Assembly: GCA_041650495.1 (NCBI GenBank)
Contig: JBAZLB010000002.1
Location: forward strand, 165,960 to 229,959
Reading direction: 5' to 3'
From: Candidatus Omnitrophota bacterium
GTDB taxonomy: Bacteria; Omnitrophota; Gorgyraeia; Gygaellales; Profunditerraquicolaceae
DNA: 64,000 nucleotides
The notes beneath the pieces are model-generated. The model saw only the letters and a list, made by a program, of their open reading frames with translations. It made no database searches and had not been told where the DNA came from. A program made the position numbers and the translations under genes. Below, piece after piece: positions 5,307 through 54,624 of the stretch (its first letter is position 1; each line of letters starts with the position of its first letter).

Positions 5307-6587
5307 TTATAACTCCTGTCCCAGGCAATCAGCCAAAAGCATCAGGTTAGCTGCGCTAGCGCCTTTATTTTGCATGATTAATTCGCTGGCGCGTCTGCCC
5401 ATGCGGCTCATCTGTGAACAATCGCACAATAAATCCGTAACGCCCGTTACTATGTCTTTTTCGTTATGCACTAAAAGCGCAGCCTTATTTTCCAGAAATA
5501 ATTCCGCAATATCACGGAAGTTAAAGGTAAAGGGCCCGGTCAATATGGGTTTTGCCCACATTGCCGGCTCCAGCATATTATGCCCGCCTTTCCTCGCAAG
5601 GCTGCCTCCGACAAAAACAATATCTGCCAGGCGGTAAAAAGAAAGGAGCTGGCCGATGGTATCCAGTATAAAAACAGCCTGGCGCTCATGCCTCCAGGGA
5701 TTAGTTAAATCCATAAGGCTTATGCACAACGGCCTGAACCCAAACCTCTCTGCCAGGGCCGCTACCTCCGCAGCCCGCCATGGATGCCTGGGGGCAATCA
5801 GAAGTTTTAAAGAAGGAAATTCTCTGGTCAGTTTTTTATAAGCGCTTAAGATAATCCTTTCTTCCGGGCGATGGGTTGAACCGGCGACAAACAAAGGCCC
5901 AGGTTCACCCTGCATAACTTTAAGGCCGCTATCCATATGCTCTTTTTTAGAATCGCTTATATCGCAGATATCAAATTTCATATTCCCCGTTACCTTTATT
6001 TTCTCAGGCAGCACGCCTAAGCGTATAAGCCTGCCGGCATCATTTTCAGACTGCAGACAAAAAAGGGTGACCTTATTCAGTATCGGCCTGAACAGGAATT
6101 TTAGCCAGAGATACCCCTTAAAAGAACCATCAGATACCCGGCCGTTTACCACTACTATGGGTATATGCTTATTATAAAGGCAGGTTATCAAATTCGGCCA
6201 AATCTCTGTCTCCGCAATTACTAATATCTTAGGCTGTATTTTCTTCAAGGCCGCCTTAACACAAAAACTGAAATCCAGAGGAAGATAAAAAAGAAAATCC
6301 CCCGGGGAAAGCGCCCCTGCGGCAACCTTATTCCCCGTGGGGGTAACCGTAGATAATGCTATCTGCCTGCCGGGATAAAGATGACGCAGTCCTTCTATCA
6401 AATGCCTGACCGCCATCGCCTCTCCCACGCTTACCGCATGCACCCAAAGAGGGCTGTTTAGATTAAGCCCCCCGGGGAATAAACCCAGGCGCATAAAAAA
6501 CCCGCGGTGGAATTTACCTTTAAAGAAGTAAACCGGCAAATAAAACAATGCCACCAGTAAAAATATTAAATCATATATTAACCACAT
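5307..6587 (-). CDS. waaA: 3-deoxy-D-manno-octulosonic acid (Kdo) transferase
   Basis: N-terminal TM anchor, WVHAVSVGE motif, GT30 length. Confidence 0.85.
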   Translation of the reverse strand: MWLIYDLIFLLVALFYLPVYFFKGKFHRGFFMRLGLFPGGLNLNSPLWVHAVSVGEAMAVRHLIEGLRHLYPGRQIALSTVTPTGNKVAAGALSPGDFLFYLPLDFSFCVKAALKKIQPKILVIAETEIWPNLITCLYNKHIPIVVVNGRVSDGSFKGYLWLKFLFRPILNKVTLFCLQSENDAGRLIRLGVLPEKIKVTGNMKFDICDISDSKKEHMDSGLKVMQGEPGPLFVAGSTHRPEERIILSAYKKLTREFPSLKLLIAPRHPWRAAEVAALAERFGFRPLCISLMDLTNPWRHERQAVFILDTIGQLLSFYRLADIVFVGGSLARKGGHNMLEPAMWAKPILTGPFTFNFRDIAELFLENKAALLVHNEKDIVTGVTDLLCDCSQMSRMGRRASELIMQNKGASAANLMLLADCLGQEL

Positions 6588-41955: not shown

Positions 41956-42234
41956 ATGCCTGAAGATCTTAATGTATTTGAATTGATAAGGCTGGTCTTT
42001 TCCTGGCTCAACCCTATAATATTTGTCATAGGGGTTCTCTTATTAGCGGCTACTGAAAAAACATTTAAGAAAATAGAAGAATTCTTTGACCAGGAGAAAG
42101 GGTTTAAGAAAAGAGTGGTGCCGCTTTTGGAGAAAGATGCCTTTAATTTCCAGCAATGGACCATGAAAAACAGGCGGATAATCGGCCTGTTTTCTATTAT
42201 TTATGTTATCTGGTCAGCCACCATATTAAGGTAA
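41956..42234 (+). CDS. Small (92 aa) two-TM membrane protein, hypothetical
   Basis: Strong RBS AAAAGGAGG 7 nt upstream of the ATG at 41956. TATAAT-like box at ~41866. Hairpin terminators follow. Confidence 0.45.
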   Translation: MPEDLNVFELIRLVFSWLNPIIFVIGVLLLAATEKTFKKIEEFFDQEKGFKKRVVPLLEKDAFNFQQWTMKNRRIIGLFSIIYVIWSATILR

Positions 42235-42296
42235 TTTTCCCCGCTTAATCCTGCCGGGAATTCCCCCGGTATTTTCAGCCCAAGCTTAGGAATAAA

Positions 42297-42333
42297 TAAA
42301 AACCAGTAATCTTCTTGCTGGTTTTTATTTATT
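42297..42333 (+). terminator. Rho-independent terminator, possibly bidirectional
   Basis: AAAAACCAG-TAATCTTCTTG-CTGGTTTTTATTTATT: 8-9 bp stem then T-run, with an A-run upstream. A smaller CCGGG..CCCGG TATTTT hairpin lies at 42254-42275. Confidence 0.5.
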
Positions 42334-42386
42334 GCAGGGCTCAACTCCCCTTTAAGCCTATCTGCGATTCTAATCTTCTTACTCAG

Positions 42387-42545
42387 CTATTTTTGTCTTA
42401 ACAGGACAATGCCGCTTATTACAGACAATATTATGGTTACGTAATTATAGATAGCCCAGTAAGTGGCGTTATTCATAGCCATGCCTATAATTGTATAAAT
42501 CGCCAAAACCAACAACAACAGCCCGATTACTTGGTTCTTTTTCAT
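42387..42545 (-). CDS. Small hydrophobic protein (52 aa), hypothetical
   Basis: MKKNQVIGLLLLVLAIYTIIGMAMNNATYWAIYNYVTIILSVISGIVLLRQK. RBS GGAGGCGG upstream, preceded by the ATGAATAAAAACCAATTAA motif. Confidence 0.35.
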   Translation of the reverse strand: MKKNQVIGLLLLVLAIYTIIGMAMNNATYWAIYNYVTIILSVISGIVLLRQK

Positions 42546-42579
42546 AACCGCCTCCAAACGACTGTTAATTGGTTTTTAT

Positions 42580-42840
42580 TCATCTAATAATGTTTATAAT
42601 AAAGAATACCACCGCTACTATGGAGAAACCAGCTAAGAATATCCCCATTATTTTAGTATTGCGGATTTCTTTTTGCATAGAGATGGGTTCAATACGCCAA
42701 TTTATCTTTTCATAAAACTTCTTTTGGATTTCAATAGTCAGTTCAGGTTTAAAAAAGACGAATAGGCCGATTATAATGCTAGCCATAGGAAGTAAGATTA
42801 GAATAAACTGTGTATTTATAATCCAATCGATTACTCTCAT
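42580..42840 (-). CDS. Small two-TM membrane protein (86 aa), hypothetical
   Basis: Start ATG overlaps the upstream gene's TGA (ATGA), RBS GGGAGAG. Translationally coupled to the 42837..43286 gene. Confidence 0.4.
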   Translation of the reverse strand: MRVIDWIINTQFILILLPMASIIIGLFVFFKPELTIEIQKKFYEKINWRIEPISMQKEIRNTKIMGIFLAGFSIVAVVFFIINIIR

Positions 42841-43286
42841 CTCTCCCGCAATGTCCTTAGTGCCCATAGGATAAAGCGGATGGGCAAGAAAATCAAATAG
42901 AGGATCAATACTTTAACTATAAATACTTTACCGAAAAAAGAAATTGATAATTCAGACCTATAAACCGCATTAGAATTTACACAGCTTGATTCTCCTAAAT
43001 CAGATTTAATACGTGCCGTATCTATAAATTCCCTTATCCGTTTTTCAATAAGTTTTGGCGGTGGATGAAGAGCTTCTTTTATAATCTCTTTAGAATTATA
43101 ACCACTACGAATCTCTGGATATATATTTATAGTGTATGTTTCTCCGTTAAGAAACTCCAATTTATATTTTGGAAATACAACGGGCATTTCAGGAAGAAAA
43201 CGCAGGATTACATACAATACAACAGCTAACCCTATTATTATCATCCCTTCTATCGCTATTATCCGCTTAATCTTTTTCTTATCCAT
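42837..43286 (-). CDS. Membrane protein (149 aa) with N- and C-terminal TM segments, hypothetical
   Basis: Complete ORF in the low-GC islet, preceded by the ATGAATAAAAACCAATTAA motif. Confidence 0.4.
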   Translation of the reverse strand: MDKKKIKRIIAIEGMIIIGLAVVLYVILRFLPEMPVVFPKYKLEFLNGETYTINIYPEIRSGYNSKEIIKEALHPPPKLIEKRIREFIDTARIKSDLGESSCVNSNAVYRSELSISFFGKVFIVKVLILYLIFLPIRFILWALRTLRER

Positions 43287-43673
43287 TCTTGATCACTCAA
43301 GCAACTATTAATTGGTTTTTATTCATCTTTTCTTAAAGGTCTTTAATTTGTCTCTATACATCTGCTTCCTTTCTCTTAATAACCTTGATATATCCTTCTG
43401 TCTTCTTGTAATTCTTTCTCTTGGCATTACCTAAAATATTCCTTTTCCCTAAATGTACTTACCGCATGTTTTGCAATTAGTGAACTTGCTATATAGATCT
43501 CCTTTTGCAGAATAAAAAAGCAACCCCCTATTTTAAAGAATTACCCTTAGATTTTGCCTATTTTGGCCCTATAACCACTCTTTTGTGGTTGTAGGTGTAT
43601 TATATCATTTTTAAAGTATCATTTAAGGATTTTTGCAAAACTCTTCGCGATAGAAAGAAATCCGCTCAGACCA

Positions 43674-43711
43674 ACAAAAAAGCGGAGACTCTTAATCCCA
43701 GAATCTCCGCC
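43674..43711 (-). terminator. Rho-independent terminator ending the RND...DUF2934 transcript
   Basis: Minus strand GGCGGAGA-TTCTGGGATTAAGAG-TCTCCGC followed by TTTTTTG. Confidence 0.55.
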
Positions 43712-43945
43712 TTCTCTTTTATATGGTTGCGGGGGTCAGTATACTAAAGAACTATACTTCTGAATCAAAAGCAACCATATTATATAGAAATAGAGCAAAT
43801 ATCAAAAAATCATGGACATAAGAGATAGATTTTATGTCCGCTTTGTCCGGTCATTTTTGGATAGAAATTGCATAACTCTTTGGGAGATTAAGAGATAAGG
43901 TTGTCCACCTCTCTTTATCCGGACATAGGCAATAAATTACTGCTT

Positions 43946-44116
43946 TTAGAAACTACAGCCTAGTAATTCTTTCTTCATTTGGCTTTTTACAATTTTTTCA
44001 GCCTGCAGCCAATAATCTAAATCACGGCTATGCTTACACCCATCCTTTTTCCAGAGCTCTTCCGCCTTTACTCTTATATAATCGGTTAGGTCAATTTCTT
44101 TACTTTTCTTTTTCAT
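43946..44116 (-). CDS. DUF2934-family small protein (56 aa)
   Basis: MKKKSKEIDLTDYIRVKAEELWKKDGCKHSRDLDYWLQAEKIV.. matches the DUF2934 A-x-E-x-W...G...D...W..AE pattern as I recall it. RBS AAAGGAG. Below the 60-aa ORF-track cutoff. Confidence 0.5.
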   Translation of the reverse strand: MKKKSKEIDLTDYIRVKAEELWKKDGCKHSRDLDYWLQAEKIVKSQMKKELLGCSF

Positions 44117-52469: not shown

Positions 52470-52513
52470 AACTATAAATAAAAGAGCGCCTTACGTATCT
52501 GTAAGACGCTCTT
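52470..52513 (-). terminator. Rho-independent terminator immediately 3' of the tRNA-fMet gene
   Basis: Minus strand AAGAGCG-TCTTACAGATACGTAAGG-CGCTCTT followed by TTATTTAT. Confidence 0.55.
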
Positions 52514-52521
52514 ATGATTTA

Positions 52522-52838
52522 TTGCGGGGGTGCGATTTGAACGCACGACCTTTAGGTTATGCATGCTACTACAGTTTTCACTGCTCTGTCATAAGCGCTT
52601 ATGACAGATTTGTAGTCTGGACTATACCTTGACCGAAATTATCTCGGCCTCTGCCGTCTAGTCTCTACACCTTTCCGTTAGAAACTCTAGCGGACTTGGT
52701 TCGGTATTACCTTTTTTGACTCTGCGGCTCCACCGAATTTGGCAGACTATCCTTCGGCCGTTTCCGGCCGAGGAGCCCATCGGACAACACATTTGTGTCC
52801 ATTGAGCCTAATGAGCTACCGGACTGCTCCACCCCGCG
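52522..52838 (-). tRNA. Initiator tRNA-fMet (anticodon CAU) split by a ~243-nt group-I-like insert in the anticodon loop
   Basis: Exon 1 (52838-52805) is CGCGGGGTGGAGCAGTCCGGTAGCTCATTAGGCT. Exon 2 (52561-52522) is CATAACCTAAAGGTCGTGCGTTCAAATCGCACCCCCGCAA. Joined, they give a canonical cloverleaf almost identical to E. coli tRNA-fMet as I recall it, with C1xA72 mismatch, anticodon loop CUCAUAA and T-loop TTCAAAT. CCA is not encoded. Confidence 0.8.
52562..52804 (-). ncRNA. Probable group I (self-splicing) intron, ~243 nt, inserted after U33 of tRNA-fMet
   Basis: 5' exon ends in U and the insert ends in G (group I U/omega-G rule). Internal AAGGTGTAGAGACTAGACGGCAGAG (plus 52647-52672) resembles the P7/J8-7 catalytic core of cyanobacterial tRNA group I introns (GGTGCAGAGACTCGACGGGAG, recalled from memory). 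No ORF inside. Confidence 0.65.
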
Positions 52839-52888: not shown

Positions 52889-52897
52889 ATTATACCA
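52889..52897 (-). promoter_or_regulatory. Extended -10 element (TGGTATAAT) of a putative promoter for the tRNA-fMet transcript
   Basis: Minus strand CATGGTATAATATAGC lies ~55 nt upstream of the tRNA 5' end. The -35 is weak (TTGCCT at a non-ideal spacing). Confidence 0.4.
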
Positions 52898-52935: not shown

Positions 52936-53205
52936 TTACGGGACTATCTTGACTGGTATCTCCCCCTTACGCACCACACCCATCTTTTCCCGGGCAATCT
53001 TCTCCTGGTAAAACGGGTCTTTCTGTAACAGGTTTATCTCCTGCTGCAAAAGGGAGTTTTCTATATTCAACTTCTTTATCTTCTGGCTTAACTGGCGGTT
53101 CTTATCCCTTAATTCCTGTAATTTGGTAAACCCCGGGAGGAATAATATAAAAATAACAGCCAATATACCAAAAATCCAGAATGCCCTTTTTAATGTTTCC
53201 GGCAT
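52936..53205 (-). CDS. Septum formation initiator FtsB/DivIC-like protein
   Basis: N-terminal TM helix followed by a coiled coil (..LQELRDKNRQLSQKIKKLNIENSLLQQEINLLQKDP..). Confidence 0.7.
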   Translation of the reverse strand: MPETLKRAFWIFGILAVIFILFLPGFTKLQELRDKNRQLSQKIKKLNIENSLLQQEINLLQKDPFYQEKIAREKMGVVRKGEIPVKIVP

Positions 53206-54470
53206 TATTTCTTCCAGATTTTCCCACTATAAATTGCCTTCTTGCCTAATGCCTCTTCTATGCGCAATAACTCGTTATATTTGCAAACCCTGTCCGTACG
53301 CGAAAGCGAGCCGGTCTTAATCTGGCCTACAGCCGTAGCTACTGCCAGATGGGCGATAGTAGTATCTTCGGTCTCACCGGAGCGGTGGGATATAACCGCC
53401 TTATATTTATTTTTCTTAGCCATTCTCACTACTTCCAGGGTTTCAGACAAAGAACCGATCTGGTTGACCTTGATTAATATGGAATTGGCAATCTTATCTT
53501 CTATGCCTTTTTTAAAGATCTTGGGGTTGGTCACAAATATGTCATCCCCTACCAGTTGAAGCTTCAGGCCAAGTGCAGATGTCATCTCCTGCCAGCCTGA
53601 AGTATCATGCTCGGAAAGGCCGTCCTCTATTGAGATAAGCGGATATTTATCCATCCAGCCTGCGTATATATTAATTAAGTCCGCGGAACTCTTGCGGGAA
53701 TTCTCAAATTGATAGGCGCCATCACGGTAAAAAGAACTCGCCGCGCAATCTAAGGCAAGGAAAATATCCTTACCCGGCTCATACCCCGCCCTTTTTATTG
53801 CCTGGAGTATAAGCCCTATTGCCTCTTCATTGGATTTCAGGTTAGGCGCAAAACCCCCCTCATCCCCCACAGAAGTAGACAGGCCTTGCGATTTTAAAAG
53901 CGCCTTCAGGTTATGAAAAACCTCCGTAGCATACCTCAGGGCCTCGCTGAAAGTAGGTGCCCCAACCGGCATAATCATGAATTCCTGGATATCAAGGTTG
54001 TTGTCCGCATGCATGCCGCCGTTTAATATGTTCATCATGGGAACAGGCAGTATTTTAGCGCTATCTCCTCCCAGATACTTATAAAGGGGCTGCTTCTTAG
54101 ATAAAGCCGCTGCCTTAGCCACTGCCAAGGAGACTCCCAATATAGCATTTGCCCCCAGCTTGGACTTATTATCCGTGCCATCCAGCTCAATAAGGAGTTT
54201 ATCTATCTTATTAAAATCAGGGCTTAATCCTTTAATGCGTCCGGAAATTACCCCATTCACATTGGCAACCGCTTTCAAAACCCCCTTACCCAGGTATTTT
54301 GACTTATCCCCATCCCTTAATTCCAGGGCCTCGTTTTCTCCGGTAGAGGCTCCTGAAGGCACAGCTGAACGGCCCATCACTCCGGAATCAAGGATTACAT
54401 CTACTTCTACCGTAGGATTGCCGCGTGAATCCAGTATTTGCCTGGCGAATACGTTCTTAATCTTGGCCAT
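53205..54470 (-). CDS. eno: Enolase
   Basis: [25 protein letters not shown].. and SHRSGETED enolase signature. Start at the internal ATG (ORF extends to 54599). Confidence 0.9.
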
Positions 54471-54624
54471 TTTTTCTCTCCTGTTGTTTAAATAGAAGTT
54501 TAGATTAGCATAATAGCATTTCTTAGTCAAGGGAAAACAGCCATACTGCTGCCTTTTTAGGATTATAAACAGCTGGGGAAAGATTTTAGTTGCAAGCATG
54601 ACAGGGGTTTGCTACTATTTTCAT

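Follow-up and report, generated by a model that had tools for sequence, protein, structure and literature searches.

The gene for the initiator tRNA (tRNA-fMet) of a Candidatus Omnitrophota bacterium is interrupted, in the 64-kb stretch of DNA analysed here (the window), by a 243-nt insert located between U33 and C34 of the tRNA. The insert is a group I intron, and its conservation suggests that it splices itself out in a guanosine-dependent manner. We consider it very probable that it is a self-splicing IC3 intron of the type that occupies the fMet 33/34 site in many bacteria, that it is removed by the route proposed below, and that it descends from a mobile intron that carried a homing endonuclease gene.

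The split initiator tRNA gene

All parts of the gene lie on the minus strand. The 5′ exon (52805..52838, 34 nt, CGCGGGGTGGAGCAGTCCGGTAGCTCATTAGGCT) comprises tRNA nucleotides 1 to 33, that is, the 5′ strand of the acceptor stem, the D arm, the 5′ strand of the anticodon stem, C32, and U33, and the 3′ exon (52522..52561, 40 nt, CATAACCTAAAGGTCGTGCGTTCAAATCGCACCCCCGCAA) runs from C34 A35 U36 to the discriminator A73. The intron, 243 nt of the IC3 type fMet 33/34, occupies 52562..52804, as indicated by Rfam RF00028, by our family model R1 (described below), by covariation, and by the minimum free energy (MFE) fold. When introns were allowed, ARAGORN found one tRNA in the 64-kb window, a tRNA-Met(cat) with a 243-nt intron, while with default settings it found zero tRNAs across the same window. 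The joined exons (CGCGGGGUGGAGCAG...GCUC...CCCCGCAA) form a 74-nt cloverleaf with a C1xA72 mismatch, A11:U24, the discriminator A73, and the anticodon CAU in the loop CUCAUAA, and the ligated junction would read ...UUAGGCU/CAUAACCUAA... (GGCU/CAUAACC). The insert sits between U33 and C34, and its last base is G (...GCAUG/CAUAACC). Among the matches listed in the genome scan presented below, the architecture of exon 1 is identical to that of exon 1 in 71 other split tRNA-fMet genes. These observations support the identification of the gene as an initiator-type tRNA (tRNA-fMet) that is interrupted after U33 by a group I intron, one of the type known from cyanobacterial tRNAs.

The original prediction for this locus, made from the letters of the sequence, had described a near-textbook initiator tRNA whose two halves are separated by 243 nt, with the C1xA72 mismatch, a CAU anticodon, an insert that begins after U33 and ends in G, and no other tRNA-fMet in the window. 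The halves are found exactly so, at 52838-52805 and 52561-52522 on the minus strand; the mismatch and the anticodon are both present in the cloverleaf of the joined exons; the position of the insert and its terminal G were confirmed; and the single tRNA reported by ARAGORN with introns allowed agrees with the absence of another copy from the window. The epithet "near-textbook" is apt for C1xA72, A11:U24, and CAU, but it does not extend to the three G-C pairs of the anticodon stem, where A29:U41 takes the place of one, nor to CCA, which is not encoded at the 3′ end of the tRNA (...GCAA/TAAATC). A29:U41 also occurs in uninterrupted syntenic orthologues and in a published Omnitrophota gene (GCF_004102945.1), and it is thus a trait of the lineage. 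An adaptation of this pair to the intron was considered and is ruled out, since the intron-less orthologues carry A29:U41 too. In other bacteria, too, natural initiator tRNAs are known that do without the first G-C pair.

The original prediction also gave the locus a promoter and a terminator of its own, and both were found. An extended -10 element, TGGTATAAT, can be read directly in the sequence about 51 nt 5′ of the tRNA (52889..52897, minus strand), and TATAAT occurs at the same upstream distance in uninterrupted orthologues (L121, L125, and L137). A scan for consensus promoters left the TGGTATAAT element uncalled because its -35 is poor. On the other side of the gene, an intrinsic terminator lies at 52472..52513 (minus strand), where a 13-pair stem, called at 52513-52482, is followed by a T run.

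The fold of the intron

The structure was modelled by hand, with 54 pairs, and was drawn together with the homologues; it was then evaluated on an alignment (A1) of the window intron and 24 non-redundant homologues. All coordinates given here are on the minus strand. At the 5′ splice site, exon nucleotides G30 G31 C32 U33 and intron nucleotides C+1 A+2 pair with the internal guide sequence GAUGGGCU (52774..52781) to form P1, in which the U33.G wobble falls at the splice site, and a 19-nt hairpin caps the helix. The AUG of the guide is in turn complementary to C34 A35 U36 of the second exon, a P10 that can be seen directly in the sequence. The columns of the guide are invariant in the 25 homologues, including its GGGC, and so are the U.G wobble and the terminal omega-G (52562).

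Downstream of the guide, P2 (52754..52771) is a hairpin with a GNRA tetraloop (UCGGCCG-GAAA-CGGCCGA), all 7/7 pairs of which covary in the family. The 5′ strand of P3 (52741-52746), J3/4, P4, P5, and P6 follow within 52674..52746, with compensatory change in 4/6 pairs of P3 and in 4/4 pairs of P6. The catalytic core (52620..52663), defined by the hand model and by covariation, consists of the 5′ strand of P7 (GACUA, 52659-52663), the 3′ strand of P3 (GGCAGA, 52650-52655), P8 (52631-52649), in which 5/5 pairs covary, and, after J8/7, the 3′ strand of P7 (UAGUC, 52620-52624). Written in full, the helices are UCUGCC/GGCAGA for P3, UUCGGUG/UACCGAA for P4, GCC/GGU for P5, UCCG/CGGA plus an extension for P6, GACUA/UAGUC for P7, and GGCCG/CGGUC for P8. 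The 3′ part of the intron (52562..52615) is a P9 three-way junction made of P9 itself (CUAC/GUAG), a long P9a hairpin, and P9b with a GAAA tetraloop. The core helices of a group I intron, P3-P8 with the P3/P7 pseudoknot, are therefore present by pairing and by covariation.

In A1, 97.0% of the cells pair, and this value falls to 31-42% when the 3′ partners are slid by 1-3 columns. Compensatory change is seen in 33/54 pairs, and 0/500 shuffles reach any of the five measures. Every pair covaries in P2, P6, P8, and P9a, and even the last pair of P7 (153:188) appears in the family as A-U, G-C, U-A, and C-G. The window intron itself forms 54/54 pairs, 17 of which differ on both sides from the commonest family pair, and it departs from the others at 4/87 of the columns that are at least 90% conserved in them; two of these four columns make up a compensatory P8 pair, and one changes U.G to C-G. 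The MFE fold of a 257-nt piece has an energy of -94.8 kcal/mol, compared to -64.8 +/- 4.7 for shuffles (z = -6.4), and it recovers all the nested helices (P1, P2, P3, P4, P5, P6, P8, and P9/9a/9b).

Rfam RF00028 (Intron_gpI), run in E-value mode, matched 52823-52602 over the full model (1-253) with 45 bits and E 3.8e-10, and at the gathering threshold it gave no match in the window. Rfam places P1 on the D-arm sequence AGCUCAU, which mimics the ligated GGCUCAU. That placement is ruled out: the true P1 is found in the MFE fold and is conserved in all homologues.

Of what had been expected for the insert from its letters, a P1-P9 fold with pairing between GGCU and the guide was borne out, both by the MFE z score of -6.4 and by covariation across the 25 homologues. 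The expected match to Intron_gpI was obtained over its full length, but not at the gathering score (45 vs 50 bits). A "P7 core" had been placed at 52647-52672; the motif, AAGGTGTAGAGACTAGACGGCAGAG, is there, although its coordinates (52673-52649) are shifted by 1-2 nt and it spans more than P7, covering J6/7, the 5′ strand of P7, and the 3′ strand of P3. As for the subgroup, IC3 is the label that homologues of the intron bear in Table S5 of PMC13011429, carried over here by homology, and the architecture fits it, with no P5abc and with GNRA loops on P2 and P9b.

The fMet 33/34 family and its distribution

To place the intron in a family, we used model R1. Its 164 positions extend from the guide sequence to P7′, and all of the 17 introns behind it come from other genomes, cyanobacterial copies such as that of Scytonema among them; the window intron was left out. 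The P2 pairs were left unpaired in R1, since MAFFT had split the P2 helix 9 to 8. R1 matches the window at 52781-52615 over the full model, with 125.8 bits and E 5e-30, and its single other match in the window has 9.1 bits and E 0.81. The window intron shows both marks of the fMet 33/34 lineage, insertion at U33/C34 of an initiator-type tRNA(CAU) and homology to the cyanobacterial members.

Species-representative genomes were scanned with a pattern made of omega-G and the exon 2 that follows it ('G + CATAACC......TC....GTTCRAATC'), which returned at least 119 loci; host taxa are those in the titles of the deposited records, and some bins are possibly wrong. Among the matches listed, 71/119 loci have a canonical initiator exon 1 at a distance of 205-738 nt on the upstream side, and 99/119 have an R1 match of 108-164 bits, a range within which the 125.8 bits of the window lies. 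The fMet 33/34 intron occurs in at least 10 phyla among these matches. Its hosts there include, among others, Cyanobacteria (Scytonema, Nostoc, Trichodesmium, and others), Nitrospirota, Acidobacteriota, Patescibacteria, Planctomycetota, Chloroflexota, Actinomycetota, several Proteobacteria, Methylomirabilota, Rhodothermales, and Saprospiraceae, and at least eight loci with the omega-G/exon-2 pattern belong to Omnitrophota. Two size classes can be told apart among the matches listed, of about 205-345 nt and of 630-740 nt, with one intermediate (L004, 514 nt), and the form without an open reading frame (ORF) is the majority in every phylum. Of 24 viral contigs that matched the omega-G and exon-2 pattern, zero had an R1 intron match, and phage-borne copies are ruled out for these 24 contigs.

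The scan also returned other tRNA genes with a CAU anticodon, whose acceptor ends resemble GGGCCCA and which have a G directly before CATAACC and strong R1 matches (L006, L012, L013, L024, L034, L048, L059, L069, L070, L083, L087, L113, L114, and L116). These are probably tRNA-Ile2 or elongator Met genes, and their R1 matches indicate that more than one tRNA species hosts the same intron lineage at 33/34. ARAGORN mislabels many of these genes as Leu, Thr, or Ser because it shifts the splice site. In three Acidobacteriota loci (L036, L060, and L068), the intron opens with CATAACC..., which repeats the first bases of exon 2, and is without P9a; in L060, this exon-2-like start runs on into a T-arm-like stretch, GGTGGTTCAAATCC. 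The 5′ part of these three introns resembles a partial duplicate of the 3′ exon, which makes the splice site ambiguous by sequence alone.

The remnant of a homing endonuclease gene

The window intron has no intact endonuclease ORF. Its ORF list holds none longer than 44 codons, and a functional ORF is ruled out, an in-frame 31-codon piece being the remnant of an endonuclease. The hairpin that extends the P1 loop (GGACACA..UGUGUUGUCC, 52782..52802, minus strand), as delimited by alignment with the introns L080 and L133, is composed of two retained pieces of a PD-(D/E)XK homing endonuclease gene that has otherwise been deleted, its start, ATGGACACAAA, and its 3′ end, TGTGTTGTCC. When the window intron is aligned with L080, an endonuclease-bearing intron that is also from Omnitrophota, there is a single clean gap of about 396 nt, and the same is observed with L133. 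What is kept on either side of the gap is the start of the ORF (CA-ATGGACACAAA, its first ~11 nt) and its 3′ end (TGTGTTGTCC-GATGGG...). Furthermore, the residual 31-codon frame, MDTNVLSDGLLGRKRPKDSLPNSVEPQSQKR up to its stop codon, matches the N-terminus of the L133 protein (MDTKLKSD) and its C-terminal tail (...LLSYGLLSRKRLKDILSNSVEPLDSNKR, then the stop).

The ORF of L080 matches PF11645 with E 5e-44; this domain was assigned by Pfam scan for L080, L033, and L047, and for L133 by the similarity of its ORF to that of L080. In L080, L033, and L133, the ORF starts at intron nucleotide 2 or 3, inside the P1 loop, and that of L133 reads through the guide sequence, P2, P3, and P4 before it stops in P5. 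Since both ends of the ORF are retained, the window intron is an internal-deletion derivative of an endonuclease-bearing intron and, judging from its sequence, a non-autonomous, endonuclease-less one.

Full-length I-Ssp6803I-like ORFs of 131-185 codons were observed in 12 introns (L002, L033, L035, L047, L049, L076, L080, L095, L097, L098, L104, and L112), three of which were checked against PF11645. Their hosts are metagenome-assembled genomes (MAGs) of Acidobacteriota, Nitrospirota, Desulfobacterota-like bacteria, Gammaproteobacteria, Planctomycetota, Omnitrophota, Patescibacteria, and Vulcanimicrobiota. The literature describes the I-Ssp6803I-like family as mainly cyanobacterial; the endonuclease-bearing intron is also found well beyond the cyanobacteria, where it was first described.

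Presence and absence of the intron among relatives

In the closest relatives for which DNA is available (L121-L126, with an enolase 80-83% identical to that of the window), the order eno-ftsB-tRNA is kept, the tRNA-Met(cat) is uninterrupted, and R1 gives zero matches. These uninterrupted genes, of the form CGCGGGG...CCCCGCAACCA, are orthologous to the window gene by synteny and by sequence, and the anticodon arm GCTCATTAGGCTCATAACCTAAAGGTC is identical in L121 and L122 (as well as in L137, which is the same contig again).

A scan of metagenomes with the lineage-specific exon 1, GGAGCAGNNNGGTAGCTCATTAGGCT, found 10 loci: six are uninterrupted, three have ORF-less introns of 224-236 nt, and one has a 637-nt intron with an endonuclease gene. 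The latter (L133; bases 629-1265 of the reverse complement of the locus, with its R1 match at 5346-5513 on the minus strand) and one of the ORF-less introns (L135; 224 nt, 5733-5956 on the plus strand) agree base for base in the 70 nt of their upstream flank, and the 224 bases that they share show 98.7% identity. L133 has a PD-(D/E)XK gene of about 410 nt, and L135 is precisely without it. Given this near-identity, the two are the same intron with and without its ORF, and the gain or loss of the gene must be very recent.

Together, the window intron and the related loci show every stage of homing in one narrow lineage: the empty site, the intron with its endonuclease, the clean loss of the gene, and, in the window, an intron that retains both ends of it. 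Deletion of the endonuclease gene is what would be expected of a late stage in the homing cycle. The patchy distribution of the intron suggests a gain in the lineage of the window rather than repeated loss in its relatives.

Weighing the alternatives

Several points weigh against the explanation that we favour, a self-splicing intron in a working initiator gene. The RF00028 score of 45 bits is under the curated gathering cut-off of 50; in this respect, Williams (bioRxiv 10.1101/2020.01.27.920355) noted that the Rfam seeds include no bacterial ones and used cut-offs of 18-20 bits. P1, P10, and 4/5 of the P7 pairs are invariant, so they speak through conservation and receive no support from covariation. 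A1 contains the window intron, on which the structure was drawn, and the slid-partner control somewhat favours the structure. The splicing activity is likewise read from conservation. The anticodon stem, with G30-C40 and G31-C39 but A:U at 29:41, has two and not three consecutive G-C pairs, and the source is a MAG.

This last point invites the suspicion that the split gene is an artefact of assembly or binning, in which two tRNA halves were joined into a chimera around unrelated sequence. The identical eno-ftsB-tRNA-intron stretch is present in a Logan contig that was assembled separately (L001, run SRR8542065), which speaks against an assembly artefact, and the insert, a homologous and complete ribozyme, sits at precisely the nucleotide where about 100 other genomes have theirs; the chance of an artefact is close to negligible. 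It is extremely unlikely, too, that the gene is an elongator tRNA-Met or a lysidine-modified tRNA-Ile2, with initiation then uninvolved. The C1xA72 mismatch, A11:U24, G30-C40/G31-C39, and the discriminator A73 are all present, and the window gene is orthologous to the uninterrupted genes described above, even though the CAU anticodon is common to all three kinds of tRNA, the anticodon stem has 2/3 of the initiator G-C pairs, and the scan loci with GGGCCCA-like acceptor ends resemble Ile2 or Met genes that are interrupted at this same position. The tRNA-fMet of E. coli presumably differs from the window tRNA at only a few positions. Such genes are often labelled Ile2 by automated tools, Table S5 of PMC13011429 (second tool column) being an example.

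The intron could also be a decayed, splicing-dead relic and the gene a pseudogene, with a second, intact tRNA-fMet elsewhere supplying the initiator. The deletion of the homing endonuclease gene would suit a relic, being expected late in the homing cycle, but the ORF-less form is the majority in every phylum among the matches listed, and 321/333 tRNA introns are below 500 bp in PMC13011429. A relic would also be in line with the Rfam score under the gathering threshold, with the CCA that is not encoded, and with a stray copy of the tRNA 3′ end 8.8 kb away. However, 54/54 pairs are intact, 17 of them with lineage-specific compensatory changes, differences in conserved columns are limited to 4/87, and the R1 score is on par with that of other members. 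In addition, the promoter and the terminator are intact, as are both exons, which agree with those of the orthologues. We thus regard a relic as very unlikely.

Proposed splicing route and origin

In the explanation that we favour, transcription of the gene would begin at its own extended -10 promoter and end at its own terminator. The guide GAUGGGCU of the precursor RNA would pair with G30-U33 of the exon and with the first bases of the intron to form P1, presenting U33.G at the 5′ splice site. A free guanosine would then be bound by the core (P3-P8, with the P3/P7 pseudoknot) and would attack after U33. Next, the guide would pair again, this time with C34-A35-U36 of the second exon (P10), and the terminal G of the intron would move into the G site. 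Ligation of the exons would restore the anticodon loop CUCAUAA, and RNase P, through a presumed removal of the 5′ leader, and the CCA-adding enzyme would complete the tRNA.

Regarding its origin, the ancestor was probably a mobile intron with a PD-(D/E)XK gene of the I-Ssp6803I type in the loop of P1, which may have entered the lineage by homing into the conserved DNA of the anticodon arm. The endonuclease gene would have been deleted afterwards.

Genomic context

Enolase and FtsB/DivIC genes lie upstream of the tRNA gene and a TetR regulator and an RND efflux operon lie downstream, with LpxB and others nearby. The enolase of the window matches, at 100% identity, a protein from an NCBI MAG that bears the name Candidatus Omnitrophota bacterium, and all the close enolase homologues with a source name (78-83% identity) come from Omnitrophota or Omnitrophica MAGs; the locus is part of a bacterial chromosome, not of a phage or plasmid. 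The enolase ORF (53205-54599, minus strand) has 464 codons as mechanically called, with the Pfam domain from residue 47; the database protein has 421 aa and starts MAKIKNV, which places the real start at an internal ATG at about 54470.

The genes on the 3′ side of eno-ftsB-tRNA-fMet vary from relative to relative (L121-L126 and L128-L137), with PilZ/4HBT, DUF134/ArsP, or unknown genes in place of the efflux operon of the window, so that this side of the tRNA is a variable region and possibly an integration hotspot. The last 10 nt of the tRNA-fMet gene, ACCCCCGCAA, recur in the same orientation 8.8 kb downstream (43724-43736, minus strand), where they are followed by CCA and by a terminator-like hairpin (an inverted repeat and a T run at ~43660-43700). 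This 10-mer occurs at two places only in the window, with 0.21 expected, and the similarity reaches slightly beyond the end of the tRNA (17/23). The copy looks like the displaced original 3′ end of the tRNA gene, and the stretch of 43.7-52.5 kb would then be an insertion into it, with TetR, RND efflux operon, HD, MarR, and patatin genes as its presumed cargo; no integrase is visible in 43.7-52.5 kb. The region that adjoins the tRNA 3′-end fragment (42001-44000) has a GC content of 0.346, compared to 0.43-0.49 elsewhere in the window, and its only ORFs are short and without Pfam matches, amid long stretches of non-coding DNA.

Implications for genome annotation and translation initiation

The gene is missed both by ARAGORN with default settings and by Rfam at its gathering threshold, two recognised blind spots whose silence does not speak for an absence of the gene, and the MAG would therefore seem to be without an initiator tRNA in the window. 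Missed split tRNA genes are a known pitfall in the scoring of genome completeness. For biology, the window intron is one more Omnitrophota example of a well-described intron lineage, and it leaves the current understanding of group I introns unchanged.

If this were the sole tRNA-fMet gene of the organism, it would be a reasonable reading that the start of translation depends on splicing. Cyanobacteria provide a precedent for such a ribozyme-dependent start. One could go further and propose that the gene is indeed the sole initiator gene of a small-genome Omnitrophota bacterium, that initiation depends on its splicing, and that the intron acts as a throttle on initiator supply that is sensitive to nutrients or GTP, but we find this unlikely. 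If it were true, the intron would not be a neutral parasite, and every round of translation initiation would need guanosine-dependent, RNA-catalysed splicing. The intron-less, ORF-less, and endonuclease-bearing alleles found in close relatives would allow for a comparison that bears on this proposal.

Comparison with known systems

The fMet 33/34 site is a common and well-characterised one in bacteria. Among 5,292 tRNA introns in ~80,000 genomes, Williams (bioRxiv 10.1101/2020.01.27.920355) recognised 'fMet.2Ug' (CU/intron...g/CAUAA) as one of four classical types of bacterial tRNA intron, all of them IC3, and a more recent survey of complete genomes (PMC13011429, mSystems 2026), which likewise treats tRNA-fMet 33/34 as common and well characterised, listed 333 tRNA group I introns in 18/63 phyla, 321 of them below 500 bp.

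The classical relatives are cyanobacterial. In Synechocystis sp. PCC 6803, the intron has 655 nt and codes for I-Ssp6803I, the founding PD-(D/E)XK homing endonuclease (PMC1995217; PMC3384342), and the long relatives of the window intron carry the same PF11645 endonuclease. The fMet introns of Synechocystis and Scytonema share with the window intron the insertion point CU/CAUAA, the boundaries U-1 and omega-G, and the guide AUGGGC; the cyanobacterial copies have the same P1-P9 architecture, with GNRA loops on P2 and P9b, and the cores of the Scytonema, Nostoc, and Trichodesmium copies can be aligned with that of the window. In contrast to these, the window intron has an Omnitrophota host and an overall identity of ~50% to the cyanobacterial copies, and, unlike that of Synechocystis, it is without the endonuclease gene, keeping its two ends only as a 19-nt hairpin in the P1 loop. 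The ORF-less introns of cyanobacteria have another P1-loop insert, of ~45 nt.

Another counterpart is the 252-nt IC3 fMet 33/34 intron of the Omnitrophota genome GCF_004102945.1 (PMC13011429, Table S5), which was catalogued by that survey without individual study. It agrees with the window intron in phylum, gene, site, and subgroup, as well as in the A29:U41-type stem with two G-C pairs, and its guide, P2, and core are similar. It differs in species and sequence, in its minimal P1 loop (caacaaugggu), which has no endonuclease remnants, and in its longer P6.

The introns of Azoarcus tRNA-Ile(CAU) and of cyanobacterial and plastid tRNA-Leu(UAA) are likewise small IC3 ribozymes in the anticodon loop, with similar tetraloop-receptor bracing by L2 and L9, but they are inserted at 36/37 and 34/35, have other guides, and have no associated PD-(D/E)XK endonuclease. 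The J6/7-P7-P3′ segment of Azoarcus, AAGGUGUAGAGACUAGACGGCA, is one that we take to be identical in the window intron. These introns, including Azoarcus with its published structures (PMC13168695), are the experimentally characterised models for the mechanism proposed here. Thus, the window intron adds a new member to a lineage that is already catalogued in Omnitrophota and in many other phyla.

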